Below, one piece after another: positions 27,104-31,986 of a DNA stretch of 42,791 bases (position 1 is the first letter of the stretch; each line of letters starts with the position of its first letter). Source of the stretch: a virus. Taxonomy: Duplodnaviria; Heunggongvirae; Uroviricota; Caudoviricetes. The stretch covers positions 1-42,791 of IMG/VR virus record IMGVR_UViG_2537562189_000008. One strand, given 5' to 3'. A model generated the notes under the pieces. The model was not told the origin of the DNA. It made no database searches and saw nothing but the letters and a program-made list of their open reading frames with translations. The position numbers and the translations under genes are program-made.

Positions 27104-27276
27104 TTCCTCGCACGATGTCTTAGCCACCGGATATCCCACAGGTGAGCCGTGTAGTTGAAGGTTTTTACGTCAGATTCTTTTGGGATTGGCTTGCGTTTAT
27201 TTCTGGAGCGTTTCGTTGGAAGGTATTTGCAGTTTTCGCAGATGATGTCGGTGATACTTCGTCGCTGTCGTCTCAT
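27100..27276 (-). CDS. ninE: NinE-like protein (58 aa; below ORF-track size cut-off)
   Basis: Own translation [58 protein letters not shown] matches recalled lambda NinE; start overlaps upstream stop (ATGA). Confidence 0.7.
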
Positions 27277-28118
27277 GCCGCATCCTCAAAATTAAATCCA
27301 AGCTGACATGAAAATGCTTCACATGATTCAGAACACGAACCTGAATCATACTGTCGCATTGATGTCATTCTTGAGGCTAACTCATCTCTTGATATATCAC
27401 TAAACAAGGCAATCAGTGATTTAAGTGTATTATTCCCTCGATACATAACCGGTTCCTTTCCTGTTTTTATTTCTGTATCAAGGATGTTGATAAATGCATC
27501 TGCAAGTTCTGGCTCATCCATGGCTGCCAGCGCAACCTTTTGCATACTTTTTTTTATACAGAAAACACAATTACCAAGATGCTCCTGTATGCCAAGATCA
27601 AACTTCTGCCCACTCCACCAATCAAGCACATCCTGTTTTTCAAAATCGCTTATATCAGCCAGGTACCGAAAACCATTAGCCCTTTTAAGCCTGTTTGGTT
27701 CATCTGTGCGAATGCCAAGCCATGTGATGTAATTTCCTTTCCCAAACTTTTCCTGACAATATTTGGTGAATGGAACAGACTTCATTCTGTCGGTACAGAA
27801 CGCACCGCCGATATATGGATGTCCGTATTTATTCAACATCCTTTTCCACGGTATAAGATCTGGACCAATATCAGTGACACCTATCTCTTCATAACTACTG
27901 GCCTTCCCCATTTCTGGATTAGGTATTACACGAAGGCAATGTAAGTCTATTTTCCAGTTACTGACGATATTTCGGATGAACTCATATGTTTTAGGGTGCT
28001 CTGCCCCTGTATCCATGAAAACGTAATGCACGTCTTCACCAGCCTGTCGCTTTTGCTCCATTAGCCAGAGCAAATATGCTGACGTCCTGCCACCGGAGAA
28101 ACTAACGACATTTATCAT
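27273..28118 (-). CDS. NinC-like PAPS-reductase-family (PP-loop ATP pyrophosphatase fold) protein
   Basis: PP-loop motif [14 protein letters not shown] near the N-terminus when started at the ATG overlapping ninB stop; ORF track frame extends to 28178. Confidence 0.7.
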
Positions 28119-28555
28119 GCAGCCTTGTCTCCCCATCTTGCTTTCCACTCCAGAGCCAGTCGCGCTTCGTCTGACCACTTAACGCCACGCTCTGTACCGA
28201 ATGCCTGTATAAGCTCTAATAGCTCCGCAAATTCGCTTACACGCATCCTGCTGGTTGACTGGCCTATTACCACAAAGCCATTCCCGGCAAGGTTAGGAAC
28301 AACATCCTGCTGCTTTAATGCTGCGGTAAACACACACTTCCAGCTTTCTGCATCCAGCCAGCGACCATGCCATTCAACCTGACGAGAGACGTCACCAAGG
28401 CAAGCCCAAAGCTTCCTGTTTTGGTCTAAGCTGCGGTTGCGTTCCTGAATGGTTACTACGATTGGTTTGGTTGGGTCTGGAAGGATTTGCTGTACCGCGT
28501 GAATAGCGTTTTGCTGATGTGCTGGAGATCGAATTTCAAAGGTTAGTTTTTTCAT
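28115..28555 (-). CDS. ninB: NinB (Orf-family recombination mediator)
   Basis: 146-aa product MKKLTFEIRSPAHQQNAIHAVQQILPDPTKPIVVTIQERNRSLDQNRKLWACLGDV... matches lambda NinB from memory. Confidence 0.88.
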   Translation of the reverse strand: MKKLTFEIRSPAHQQNAIHAVQQILPDPTKPIVVTIQERNRSLDQNRKLWACLGDVSRQVEWHGRWLDAESWKCVFTAALKQQDVVPNLAGNGFVVIGQSTSRMRVSEFAELLELIQAFGTERGVKWSDEARLALEWKARWGDKAA

Positions 28556-28571
28556 GACTTCCCTCTCCCCC

Positions 28572-28603
28572 AAATAAAAAGGCCTGCGATTACCAGCAGG
28601 CCT
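28572..28603 (-). terminator. tR2-like rho-independent terminator between helicase gene and ninB
   Basis: Minus-strand hairpin AGGCCTGC-TGGTAATC-GCAGGCCT followed by TTTTTATTTG. Confidence 0.65.
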
Positions 28604-28631: not shown

Positions 28632-31112
28632 TCAGAATCCTCCTTTCTTCTTGGACTGCGGTTCCTCGCGTTCACGTCGGCGCATTTCAGCAGACTGTTG
28701 GTCTGTGTCATAAATAGCGCCATTTGCCTGAATGCAATACACCGTGCCGGTATTGCCATGACGATTGAGACGAAGGATTAGTTCGGTTTCACCAGGTGGA
28801 ACACTGTCATCAAAAGCGCCTTCACGATGGATCCCAACCCAATAATCGCAATCCTGTTCAATCTGCCCTGTATCTCGTGAGTCACTTGGTAATGGGCGTT
28901 TATTGGTTCGGCTTTCCAGTGCGCGGTTAAGCTGTGTCAGAAGCACAACAACGCAATCAAGCTCTTTGGCAAGGTTCTTCAGTCCTTTGGTGATCATGCC
29001 GTAAGCAAGGTCGTTGCGATCGGCCTTCTCAGCGGTCATTAGTGTCAGGTAATCGACCAGAATCATGCCAACACATCCTTTTTCTCGCTTGATTCGACGG
29101 CTTTCGCTGACGATTTGAGCCAGAGATAATCCCGGCGTGTCGTCGATGTAAAGCATGTCGATTTCACTCAAGCGATTAGCTGTTTCGATCGCCCTGTTGA
29201 AGTCACCATCGTAATCACCCTGATAGCCGTCATCAGCGTCATTTGTCGCCGGAAGGTAAAAAATATTCGGGTTAACACCAGACTTCTGCCCTACCAGTTT
29301 TTCCAGTATCTGGTCACCTGGCATTTCAAGGCTGAACATCAGAGCGGGCTTTTTCTCATGCACTGCGCAGTTGATTGCCATCTGGCTGTATAGCGTGGTG
29401 TTGTGGGTTAGAATGTATCCGTCAGTTGCATACAAATGTCTCTCGTGGGATACCATGATGCAAATGCACTCTTCACGTCCAATATACTCAACCGACGTGA
29501 TAACAGGCGCACTTGTTTTGATGCGTTTTGCAGTGAATTTTTGCTTCAGGCGTGGAGATTTTATGTGTGATAGAACCTCATCAGGCAACCTGATTGCGCA
29601 AATATGGGCATCCATACCTTTGCGCATTTCTCCCTTATAACTGAATTTCGGCTCCTGTTTGGTTGTCATACGACACACGCCACCAAGAGAATGCACCAGC
29701 CGCTTTACACCATCTGACAGGAACTTGCTTGCCGAGCTAAAGCGCAGGGCATTATTTCCTTCAACCCAACCATCGGTTTCAAGTAATCCGCATAGAACAT
29801 CAATACGAGTTTGCTTATCAGCAGAAAAAATAATATCCGGGATAATTTTAATCTCTGACATCCGGCCGTAGATACCAAGCCGTTGCATAACCCGCGTAAG
29901 AGATAATTTGCGGCTAAACTTGTGAGATAGGGAGTAATCGCAGCCAGAAACATGCCTGACTTCAATATCGTCACCCACTTCAGATCTTACTCGCTCAATG
30001 ATGTATGGTTCCGTCATGCTGATTCGTGGCGTACCTGCAAGATTTCCATCGCCAAGTAACGCACCTAACAGCCATGGGCTAATCCCTAAATCAACAGGCA
30101 ATCCGAAGTCACCGCTAATACCAGGAACATGAATGCGGCTTTGATAGCGAACGCATTCCATCATGTCCCGTAGGCGGCAGGTGTCTACAACATCAACGCC
30201 ACCGGTAATACGGTTACTATGAATTTCCCACAAATGATCATCCGCGCAATCAACGGTTCTTCCGTCAGAGAACGTAACTCGGTAAATATCTCGCTCCCCT
30301 TGAGGAAAAACTCCAGACACGAATGATGGTTGTCCATCCACTGATGCTAGGGAATCTCCAACACATACGTCACGAAATGTTGTCCATGAACCATCAGCAA
30401 GCAAAATGCGTGAATTAAGCGGTTGCGCTTTCCCCATCTTAGGGCGAGCGCCAATGACAAACAGAGAGCCTTTCACCAGACCTTTCGGTGACAGCATCCT
30501 GTCCAGCGATGGGATCCCTGTGCTCATTCCTCGTTGTTCGCCTGACGGGTCAAATCGCTTCTCAAGGTCGCTAACCCAGTCTTCCATGACCTCACCAAAT
30601 GAGCGAAGGCCGCGACGCGATCCGGTTTTTGCATGGTCTGTCAGTTGCGTGAAAATCGACTGAATAGCTTCGTACTTCTGCGTTGCAGTCATTCCGTTGC
30701 GGGAATAGAGCAATTCCGTCGCTTCAGTCATGCGGTTGATGGCGTAGCGTTCCATTGCGGTTTCGCGAACCTGCATTGCATAAGCAACGATGTTTGCTGC
30801 GCTTGGCGTGTTCTTTGCGATCTCAGCGATATAAGCAAAACCGCCAACAGACACCGTTAACGATTTGCGCTCCAGTTCATCGAAAAGCGTCAGGCCATCT
30901 ACTGGCTTTTGCTCCCGGTGCATTCTGGTTATTTCTTCGAAAAGGATTTTGTGTGGTCGGCTGTAAAATGAATCAGGCTTCAGCATCGCCAGAACTTTCT
31001 GGACGCGCTCACTGCTGTCATCATCCAGAAGCAATCCACCAATCACCGCCTGCTCTGCCTCGATGCTATGGGGCGGCGCATAAAAATTATCGGTCATCGT
31101 GTTCACCCTCAC
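28632..31112 (-). CDS. Replicative DNA helicase (DnaB family, P22 gene 12-like) interrupted by an intein
   Basis: 826-aa ORF; DnaB N-terminal domain (YAPPHSIEAEQAVIGGLLLDDD); Walker A GARPKMGK split from its Thr and the downstream DnaB motifs (TLYSQMAINCA...MFSLEM) by a 343-aa insertion bearing Hint and LAGLIDADG motifs. Confidence 0.88.
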   Translation of the reverse strand: MRVNTMTDNFYAPPHSIEAEQAVIGGLLLDDDSSERVQKVLAMLKPDSFYSRPHKILFEEITRMHREQKPVDGLTLFDELERKSLTVSVGGFAYIAEIAKNTPSAANIVAYAMQVRETAMERYAINRMTEATELLYSRNGMTATQKYEAIQSIFTQLTDHAKTGSRRGLRSFGEVMEDWVSDLEKRFDPSGEQRGMSTGIPSLDRMLSPKGLVKGSLFVIGARPKMGKAQPLNSRILLADGSWTTFRDVCVGDSLASVDGQPSFVSGVFPQGERDIYRVTFSDGRTVDCADDHLWEIHSNRITGGVDVVDTCRLRDMMECVRYQSRIHVPGISGDFGLPVDLGISPWLLGALLGDGNLAGTPRISMTEPYIIERVRSEVGDDIEVRHVSGCDYSLSHKFSRKLSLTRVMQRLGIYGRMSEIKIIPDIIFSADKQTRIDVLCGLLETDGWVEGNNALRFSSASKFLSDGVKRLVHSLGGVCRMTTKQEPKFSYKGEMRKGMDAHICAIRLPDEVLSHIKSPRLKQKFTAKRIKTSAPVITSVEYIGREECICIMVSHERHLYATDGYILTHNTTLYSQMAINCAVHEKKPALMFSLEMPGDQILEKLVGQKSGVNPNIFYLPATNDADDGYQGDYDGDFNRAIETANRLSEIDMLYIDDTPGLSLAQIVSESRRIKREKGCVGMILVDYLTLMTAEKADRNDLAYGMITKGLKNLAKELDCVVVLLTQLNRALESRTNKRPLPSDSRDTGQIEQDCDYWVGIHREGAFDDSVPPGETELILRLNRHGNTGTVYCIQANGAIYDTDQQSAEMRRREREEPQSKKKGGF
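29400..30428 (-). other. Intein (Hint splicing domain plus LAGLIDADG homing endonuclease) inserted in the helicase P-loop; Ala at position 1 with Trp, Cys and Thr at the positions expected for a class-3-type intein
   Basis: Residues A229..N571 of the helicase ORF: block A-like ILLADGSW...CVGDSLASVDG, block B-like GRTVDCADDHLW, LAGLIDADG motifs LLGALLGDGNL and LCGLLETDGWVEG, C-terminal ...CICIMV...YILTHN followed by Thr as +1 extein residue restoring GK-T. Confidence 0.75.
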
Positions 31113-31986
31113 GAACTTTCAGGTAGGTATTGTCGTTAAGCAGGAAATCAAATCCCTTTTTGTGCCAGACGGTTCCGCGTTGATGGTTTGGGCGCTCTTC
31201 GAACATCCATCGGCAATTTTCGCCTACGTAGCTCAAATAATTTCTCCAGTCCTGCATCGTGAACCCATGCCCGTCAAGTTGGCGTGTTATTACTCCGGCT
31301 TTGCGCCAGAACGTTCGGATCTGGTTTTTACGCTTGTCATTCAGTGCGCGGATTCTTGGCGCTTCAGGAAGGATTTCGTGGTAAGCATCGACAACATCCT
31401 GACAGCTGACGGAAGGTTTTTTCTTGTCAGACTTTTTGTCTGCTGTGGCACTCTCTAATACGTCAGTATTAGAGATAATATTATTATATTCTTTATCTGT
31501 GGTAATTTGCTGGTAATCTACTGGTACAGTATTGCTTACAGGCATTGGTATTGCTGGCTTTGAGGTGGTAATTTGCTGGTAATCTGCTGGTACAAAACTT
31601 GACTGATAATCGTCATATTTCTCTACCGAGAAAACTGAGAATTTACCGTGTGAAACCCAGTCAATCATGCCGAGTTTTTTGAACTTTCTAAGCAGGTACT
31701 GAACGCGATCTGGTTTGAGTCCTGTTTCAAACGCCAGAGAGTTTCTACCGCCAAGTAGCTTCCCTCTGCCTACCATAATTTCTCCTGCGTCAGTCATTAC
31801 ATACTCAGGCGTATGCTTTGCTTTGAGGATTAAGTGAACCCACAGATGCGCAGCTTCTGCGTCCTTGTAAAACGGCACATCCATAATTTTACGGTGCAGC
31901 AAGGCATACCCCTTACCGCTGCTTTGATGCGGTTGTTGTAGCCTTCTGGCCTCTCTGGCTTCGGCTAGATTAGATATGTTACTCAT
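31087..31986 (-). CDS. Replication initiation protein (lambda O / P22 gene 18 functional analogue) containing internal origin iterons
   Basis: 299-aa ORF directly upstream of the helicase gene; internal DNA iterons encode repeated ...DYQQITT... peptides. Confidence 0.7.
31500..31594. repeat. Putative replication origin iterons (two 29-bp direct repeats TGGTAATTTGCTGGTAATCT[A/G]CTGGTACA with 11-bp internal periodicity) next to an AT-rich tract
   Basis: Direct repeats at 31500..31528 and 31566..31594; AT-rich stretch 31455..31499. Confidence 0.65.

Follow-up and report, generated by a model that had tools for sequence, protein, structure and literature searches.

Class 3 inteins are defined by a first residue that is not a nucleophile, combined with Trp at position 12 of block B (B:12), Cys at F:4, Thr at G:5, and a C-extein that begins (+1) with Thr or Ser (PMC2807308, PMC3196547). 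The class 3 clade has been reported as monophyletic (Tori et al. 2010; Tori & Perler 2011), with helicase P-loops as the preferred sites and an origin in phages (PMC2807308, PMC3196547). Here, we analyzed a stretch of 42,791 nucleotides (nt) (the window; IMG/VR virus record IMGVR_UViG_2537562189_000008, positions 1 to 42,791), which is a mosaic P22-like, lambdoid Escherichia coli prophage. Within the Walker A motif of its DnaB-family replicative helicase, the window very probably encodes a functional intein of class 3, in which a LAGLIDADG homing endonuclease is nested.

The prototype of the class, MP-Be DnaB of mycobacteriophage Bethlehem (Tori et al. 2010, PMC2807308), resembles the window intein in its described features. 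Both interrupt the ATPase P-loop of a phage DnaB-family helicase, are about 340 amino acids (aa) long, have a non-nucleophilic residue 1, the Trp/Cys/Thr (W/C/T) triplet, Thr+1, and a terminal Asn, and carry a LAGLIDADG endonuclease. They differ in the first residue, Pro1 in MP-Be DnaB and Ala1 in the window, and in the host, which is an actinobacteriophage in the first case and an enterobacterial lambdoid prophage in the second. The best natural matches to the splicing domain in the PDB (E values of 1e-6 to 1e-5) were Msm DnaBi1 (6bs8) and M. chimaera DnaB1 (Mch DnaB1; 6rix/6riy) (PMC6195587, PMC7664689). These two inteins share with that of the window the DnaB P-loop site, Ala1, His65 and Trp67 in the same numbering, Cys F:4, and the Thr-His-Asn end, but they are chromosomal, have lost the endonuclease (139 to 146 aa), are followed by Ser+1, and have the block B acid at B:7. 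Splicing of Msm DnaBi1 is redox and zinc regulated via Cys48-Cys118 (PMC6195587, PMC7664689).

In E. coli lambdoid phages, an intein has been described in the replication protein P of the Stx2a phages phi24B and Min27 (Smith et al. 2012, PMC3430580). It is 46% identical to the window intein over the full 343 aa and has the same architecture, the same class 3 signature (GHGK/ACPL…HLW…CLCIMV…ATHN/T, with slashes at the junctions), the same Walker A location, and the same setting in an E. coli lambdoid replication module, but its host protein is a nonorthologous gp4-like primase-helicase (T7 gp4-like, with a toprim domain) and not a DnaB-like one. The phi24B intein was published as residues 372 to 702, with no class given (PMC3430580). 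The boundaries that we found in phi24B gene P (L002 1888-4794) are aa 372 to 713. We take “EP-Min27 Primase” to be an InBase entry.

Our literature search returned no paper on an intein in the DnaB-like helicase of an HK620/Sf6-type replication module (the InBase catalogue lay outside this search), and the phi24B note was the only one found on inteins in lambdoid phages, in the helicases of Stx phages, or in the DnaB of Salmonella prophages. A review states that inteins seem to be lacking in E. coli and Salmonella (PMC5050341). This contrasts with the presence of the window intein, at a nucleotide identity of at least 99.6%, in 18 of 5,426 complete E. coli genomes and of phi24B-type intein DNA in 79 of them (the carriers including many O157:H7 prophages), as well as with the 90% cluster of the window helicase precursor, some of whose 449 members are labelled Salmonella enterica serovar Alachua and Shigella boydii. 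Mechanistically, there is nothing new here, since class 3 was itself founded on inteins that split the P-loop of phage DnaB-type helicases. On the other hand, E. coli is the best genetic host available, in which homing, co-conversion, and class 3 chemistry would be directly testable with HK620, Sf6, and lambda-hybrid phages.

Insertion site and host helicase

The helicase open reading frame (ORF) lies on the minus strand (28632..31112) and comprises 826 aa when counted from the first GTG, at 31112. The likely start codon is the ATG at 31097, which gives a precursor of 821 aa, and exactly this 821-aa sequence is present in NCBI under the label “helicase DnaB [Escherichia coli]”. Judged by its domains, the host protein is a phage DnaB-family replicative helicase; the initial annotation of the window had proposed a DnaB-family helicase. 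TIGR03600 (phage_DnaB, the NCBIfam model for the DnaB-family phage replicative helicase) scored 557.5 bits, above the curated cutoff of 498.65, over two stretches that skip the insert, and Pfam placed the DnaB N-terminal domain (PF00772) and DnaB_C (PF03796; aa 572 to 792 of the 826-aa ORF) on its two sides. HK620, Sf6, and HK633 encode its intein-free orthologues.

The insert is in frame between the Lys and the Thr of Walker A, the order being GARPKMGK, then AQPLNSR…YILTHN, and then TTLYSQ; the initial annotation had placed it correctly to the base (Table 1). When it is removed, a helicase of 478 aa (counted from the ATG; 483 aa if counted from the GTG) remains, with Walker A intact as GARPKMGK-TT, i.e., with the GK-T that had been predicted to be restored by excision. 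A 600-nt query made of the joined flanks gave one ungapped, end-to-end match to intein-free alleles, with an identity of up to 99.5%, and the insertion boundary is therefore unambiguous at the nucleotide level.

TABLE 1 Positions in the window of the helicase gene, its extein and intein parts, and the conserved motifs of the intein
Feature	Position	Strand	Remarks
Helicase precursor CDS	28632..31097	-	821 aa from ATG 31097; stop codon 28632-28634; frame open up to GTG 31112 (start codon likely)
N-extein of 223 aa with …GARPKMGK at its end (DnaB N-terminal domain, linker, and Walker A, first half)	30429..31097	-	Pfam PF00772 and start of PF03796
Intein, 343 aa (Ala1 to Asn343), class 3 signature, nested LAGLIDADG homing endonuclease (predicted)	29400..30428	-	ORF aa 229-571
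C-extein, 255 aa plus stop, first residue Thr+1 (TTLYSQ…), RecA-like ATPase domain	28632..29399	-	PF03796 DnaB_C
Splicing block A (AQPLNSRILLADG)	30390..30428	-	Ala1 (GCG) at 30426-30428
Splicing block B (GRTVDCADDHLWEI)	30222..30263	-	His65 = B:10 (30234-30236); Trp67 = B:12 (30228-30230)
Endonuclease block C, first LAGLIDADG motif (SPWLLGALLGDGNL)	30039..30080	-	Asp127 at 30048-30050; aligns to PI-SceI 209-219
Endonuclease block D (KIIPDII)	29829..29849	-	Lys194 at 29847-29849; aligns to PI-SceI K301-N-I-P
Endonuclease block E, second LAGLIDADG motif (RIDVLCGLLETDGWV)	29763..29807	-	Asp219 at 29772-29774; Pfam LAGLIDADG_3
Endonuclease block H (LVHSLGGV)	29676..29699	-	S247, L248, and G249 invariant in alignment A1
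Splicing block F region (EECICIMVSHERHLYA)	29427..29474	-	Cys323 = F:4 (29460-29462), predicted initiating nucleophile; Cys321 at 29466-29468
Splicing block G (GYILTHN) and C-extein Thr+1 (29397-29399)	29397..29420	-	Thr341 = G:5, His342 = G:6, Asn343 = G:7

An insert of this kind might also be a domain fusion that never splices, with a LAGLIDADG or DNA-binding module built into the helicase for good; nothing speaks for this beyond the in-frame insertion itself. Such a module would leave the Gly-Lys-Thr of the P-loop split, which is incompatible with ATPase function unless the insert is removed. Furthermore, the insert has a complete Hint fold (see below), a terminal His-Asn, and a Thr+1, and insert-free alleles are collinear to the base. 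We consider the fusion effectively refuted; likewise, the fold and boundary evidence excludes the unrelated domain that the initial annotation had named as the alternative to a Hint fold.

Class 3 signature

The first residue of the intein is Ala1, i.e., not Cys, Ser, or Thr. When block B (GRTVDCADDHLW) is counted from G56 as B:1 (G56-RTVDCADD-H65-L-W67), His65 is B:10 and Trp67 is B:12; thus, the Trp that had been described as following block B is indeed at the class 3 position, but it lies inside the block. His65 and Trp67 were found opposite the HQW of Msm DnaBi1 and Mch DnaB1 in the phmmer/HMMER alignment, and H65, L66, and W67 are invariant in alignment A1. In block F (E320-C-I-C323), the second of the two Cys residues occupies F:4, opposite the catalytic Cys of Msm DnaBi1 (…vrCvev…), so that the block F Cys of the initial annotation is Cys323. 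The intein ends in Thr341-His342-Asn343, followed by the Thr+1 of the C-extein. Therefore, Ala1 and the Thr before the terminal His-Asn had been read correctly, and the class 3 pattern as a whole holds when aligned to the characterized Msm DnaBi1 and Mch DnaB1, with Trp, Cys, and Thr at B:12, F:4, and G:5.

The signature was scored in 178 relatives, namely, the best 150 representatives of 50% clusters plus 28 word-index matches. All 166 relatives that align across the motif positions had H-W-C-T-H-N, and Cys F:4 was present in every relative aligning that far. Of the 134 relatives aligned at residue 1, 125 have Ala there and 9 have Ser, and the +1 residue was mostly Thr (Ser in 11 and Cys in 1). 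This uniform signature and the class 3 nature of the nearest natural splicing domains in the PDB are in line with membership in the class 3 clade.

Splicing could in principle follow another route, with a direct attack of Thr+1 on the N-terminal junction in the manner of class 2 (KlbA-type) inteins and a purely structural role for Cys323. Ala1 is common to class 2 KlbA inteins (PMC2807308), and the block B acid is placed otherwise than in Msm DnaBi1, at B:9 (D64, within a conserved D/E-H-L-W) versus B:7 in the DxxH of the latter (PMC6195587). However, class 2 is known only in archaeal KlbA, where Cys+1 is used and the W/C/T triplet is missing (PMC2807308, PMC3196547), whereas Trp, Cys, and Thr are all present here and invariant in every close relative that aligns. 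In addition, among the natural splicing domains in the PDB, class 3 inteins gave the closest matches, and none of the class 3 inteins tested could do without Cys F:4 (PMC2807308, PMC6195587). On these grounds, the class 2 route appears extremely unlikely.

Hint fold and homing endonuclease

An AlphaFold model of the intein, built from an 18-sequence alignment, had a pLDDT of 91.3 and a pTM of 0.90. In a Foldseek comparison to the PDB, PI-SceI came first (E value of 1.5e-16; TMq, 0.73), followed by other intein endonucleases. The Hint part matched the class 3 mini-inteins 6rix, 6riy, and 6bs8 at a TMt of 0.74 to 0.86, with Ssp DnaB, Npu DnaB, and the Mxe GyrA intein among the further matches, and the LAGLIDADG part matched I-DmoI. 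Thus, in the model, the N- and C-terminal parts of the insert form a Hint fold.

Along similar lines, phmmer against the PDB sequences retrieved intein splicing domains and PI-SceI-type endonucleases (E values of 1e-6 to 1e-8). The top match was 6riz, an engineered W/C/T variant of the gp41-1 helicase intein (PMC7664689), and the best natural splicing-domain matches were Msm DnaBi1 (6bs8; 1.3e-6) and Mch DnaB1 (6rix, 6riy). The gp41-1 split intein itself (6qaz), from a cyanophage-like DnaB-type helicase, resembles the window intein in the high match of its splicing domain, its …ILTHN C terminus, and Thr G:5, but it is a class 1, naturally split intein with Cys1 and no endonuclease. PI-SceI (the yeast VMA1 intein; 1lwt, 1vde), the best fold match of the whole model, also combines a Hint domain with a nested two-motif LAGLIDADG endonuclease; it differs in being class 1 (Cys1, Cys+1), exceeds the window intein by about 110 aa, has an additional region for DNA recognition, and is only ca. 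15% identical.

The established catalytic residues of PI-SceI are Asp218, Lys301, and Asp326, and Asp127, Lys194, and Asp219 of the window intein align to them. The two aspartates belong to the LAGLIDADG motifs LLGALLGDG (intein aa 120 to 128) and LCGLLETDG (aa 212 to 220), and the invariant endonuclease residues in alignment A1 included L121, G122, L125, G128, K194, P197, D219, and G220. Pfam LAGLIDADG_3 (PF14528) was found inside the insert with 25.1 bits against a cutoff of 22.5, and Hom_end_hint was below threshold. From these sequence features, we infer that the insert carries a two-motif intein-borne LAGLIDADG homing endonuclease, with a predicted cleavage activity. Pfam, the AlphaFold model, and the Foldseek matches agree on a Hint fold with a nested LAGLIDADG endonuclease, in line with the Hint blocks and the two LAGLIDADG motifs that the initial annotation had recognized.

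Distribution and recent movement

Intein-free alleles are abundant. The joined-flank query found the empty allele, end to end and ungapped, in 357 E. coli genomes and 87 phage records at 98 to 99.5% identity, the phages including HK620, Sf6, HK633, HK75, and an Stx1 phage. In the HK620 and Sf6 helicases, the intein-free site reads …CCTAAGATGGGGAAAACCACGCTATACAGCCAG….

Among the 18 E. coli genomes with the intein, 16 have the window's type of helicase and 2 (ET791 and ET846) have a second type, which also carries the intein in the IMG/VR prophages L013 and L015. The precursor of this second type is 808 aa long (L004 from ET791, L013, and L015, and also ET846), and intein-free alleles of it were found in 7 genomes. 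The intein in the second type is 99.7% (nt) and 99.4% (aa) identical to that of the window, while the exteins are only 72 to 75% (nt) and 62 to 68% (aa) identical in gapped alignments, and identity between the two types falls immediately outside the intein junctions. At the joined site, a 20-bp core, AAGATGGGGAAA/ACCACGCT, is identical in both helicase types. Among the copies of the window's type, divergence was 0 to 0.4% in the intein versus 0.6 to 2.1% in the flanks. A third helicase type (819 aa; L017 3001-4029, IMG/VR UViG 3300022758_000093) has at the same site an intein that is 81% (nt) and 87% (aa) identical to that of the window.

Since the same intein sits in helicases whose exteins are 72 to 75% identical at the nucleotide level, the element appears to have moved recently. 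Read from the sequences, the presence/absence polymorphism and the near-identical intein in diverged alleles are classic footprints of recent homing, and the intein appears to be spreading among E. coli prophages. With near-identical inteins at one site, alleles that are 25 to 28% diverged in DNA, and abundant empty alleles, this is an unusually clean natural snapshot of homing. Base composition also shifts at the insert: the G+C content at third codon positions (GC3) is 0.405 in the intein versus 0.556 and 0.496 in the exteins, and the AT skew is +0.09 to +0.11 over the intein (positions 29550 to 30450) and negative in the flanking helicase sequence. Both shifts are consistent with a foreign origin of the insert.

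The ET791 and ET846 isolates come from frog (Hoplobatrachus rugulosus) samples in China, and the ET846 genome has two places that match the intein.

Intactness, selection, and annotation

The reading frame is open through N-extein, intein, and C-extein in 19 copies (the window, 6 E. coli loci, and 12 IMG/VR loci), with precursors of 821, 808, or 819 aa in the loci other than the window, and all catalytic residues are intact in the window intein. The comparison of the window intein to the L017 copy gave a ratio of nonsynonymous to synonymous substitution rates (dN/dS; Nei-Gojobori) of 0.062 for the whole intein and of 0.057, 0.072, and 0.031 for Hint-N, endonuclease, and Hint-C, respectively; the dS of ca. 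1.15 is near saturation, which makes these values rough, although far below 1. Since dN/dS is ca. 0.06 in both, the splicing and endonuclease functions would both be under purifying selection.

In RefSeq, the PGAP pipeline annotates the gene as two “incomplete” pseudogenes, N- and C-terminal, in 6 out of 6 loci (L001 5332-7797; L003 to L007). Their ends coincide exactly with the intein junctions, and the 1,029-nt intein is left unannotated, while GenBank protein entries name the 821-aa product plainly “helicase DnaB”. The consequence of the split and the plain label is that prophage completeness and intein censuses are both biased.

Taken at face value, the RefSeq annotation implies that the prophage is decaying, that its helicase gene is a pseudogene, and that the insert is what remains of a dead intein. 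Inactive class 3-like inteins do exist, such as Arth_1007 (PMC3196547), and none of the isolated phages in the 50,697-record collection has the DNA of this intein (see below). However, Arth_1007 lacks His B:10 and Cys F:4, whereas here every catalytic residue is intact, the frame is continuous in 19 out of 19 copies, and the low dN/dS extends over the splicing and endonuclease domains. Besides, the presence of the same intein in helicases only 72 to 75% identical would imply recent movement and hence an active endonuclease, and pseudogenes that end at the exact intein boundaries are what is expected of a pipeline that does not model inteins. A dead remnant is, in our view, very improbable.

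The near saturation of dS is one of several points that count against an active class 3 intein. The displaced block B acid is another, and active-site details may differ from those of Msm DnaBi1. When Ala1 and the W/C/T residues were grafted onto the class 1 gp41-1 intein, no efficient splicing resulted (PMC7664689); therefore, the class 3 signature alone is no guarantee of activity. A megablast search of 50,697 phage records with the intein DNA gave no match, i.e., no isolated phage in this set carries it, and tblastn of the intein against the phage records found relatives where megablast gave none. Finally, a defective prophage is conceivable, in which case selection on the window copy would be relaxed.

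Proposed splicing and homing pathway

All evidence considered, we hold it very likely that the helicase Walker A houses a functional class 3 intein, with a homing endonuclease of the LAGLIDADG type nested in it. The chemistry, splicing, and DNA cleavage proposed below are modelled on the homologous inteins MP-Be DnaB, Msm DnaBi1, and Mch DnaB1 (PMC2807308, PMC3196547, PMC6195587, PMC7664689). Translation would yield an 821-aa precursor that is unable to bind ATP and has no ATPase activity, because its P-loop is split. The Lys-Ala1 peptide bond would be attacked by Cys323 (F:4), which the block B residues His65 and Trp67 would activate and which would be positioned with Thr341; this would form a block F thioester branched intermediate, from which the N-extein would be handed to the side chain of Thr+1. 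Cyclization of Asn343 would then release the intein, and an O-to-N acyl shift would produce the normal peptide bond of a 478-aa helicase with GARPKMGK-TT. The freed intein, as a site-specific endonuclease, would cut intein-free helicase alleles at the joined site, and repair from an intein-bearing copy, in a coinfection or a phage-prophage encounter, would copy the intein in.

The predicted catalytic Cys is part of a C-x-C motif, Cys321-Ile-Cys323 (29460-29468, minus strand). This arrangement recurs as CQC and CLC in PhoH-type and phi24B relatives, though not in every family member.

By analogy with the redox and zinc regulation of Msm DnaBi1, C321-x-C323 might be relevant to conditional splicing. 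A more far-reaching proposal is that the intein is an active homing element sweeping the lambdoid prophages of E. coli, Salmonella, and Shigella, with splicing that is conditional, e.g., on redox state or metal via Cys323 and Cys321; we regard this as rather doubtful. If splicing were conditional, maturation of the helicase, and hence prophage replication after induction, would be gated posttranslationally by the state of the host cell, and if the whole proposal were true, class 3 intein biology could be studied in E. coli in a system that is both native and genetically tractable.

Related inteins and genomic setting

In total, 2,794 cluster representatives match at an E value of 1e-30 or lower, most of them DnaB proteins of ca. 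800 aa with the insert near residues 210 to 230. This number, the phmmer matches, and the Foldseek match to PI-SceI put the finding well outside the reach of chance. Relatives were also found in the GK/T or equivalent site of UvrD-like, PhoH-like, and other NTPases. The inteins of PhoH-like ATPases (P0009, P0012, P0014, P0016, P0019, P0021, and P0022) are 29 to 35% identical and start with Ser1 (…YMRGR/SQPLD…), retaining Trp B:12, Cys F:4, Thr G:5, and Thr+1; W/C/T inteins with a potential N-terminal nucleophile are a minority type (PMC2807308).

Three further sequences (P0001, P0029, and P0030) have inteins that are 50 to 59% identical after the same GARPKMGK. Given these and the L017 intein, one helicase family has hosted several diverged intein lineages at one site. 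A chimeric ORF (P0002; NCBI/Logan, 565 aa, on a 235-kb contig) joins the helicase N-part and intein residues 1 to ca. 110 (99% identical) directly to a structural protein of the phage-stabilization type (PF11134), apparently as the result of a deletion in the prophage that has one of its ends within the intein.

In the window, the neighbors of the helicase gene are ninB (28115..28573) on one side and, on the other, an O-like replication gene (31087..31986). Of the 12 kb around the helicase, at most 75% is matched in any complete E. coli genome. Just downstream of ninB lies an ORF of 301 aa (27273-28178, minus strand), which the annotation of matching prophage regions in E. coli assigns to the phosphoadenosine phosphosulfate reductase family. 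At this position, the nin-region genes differ in other intein-bearing loci, which gives the intein mosaic backgrounds.

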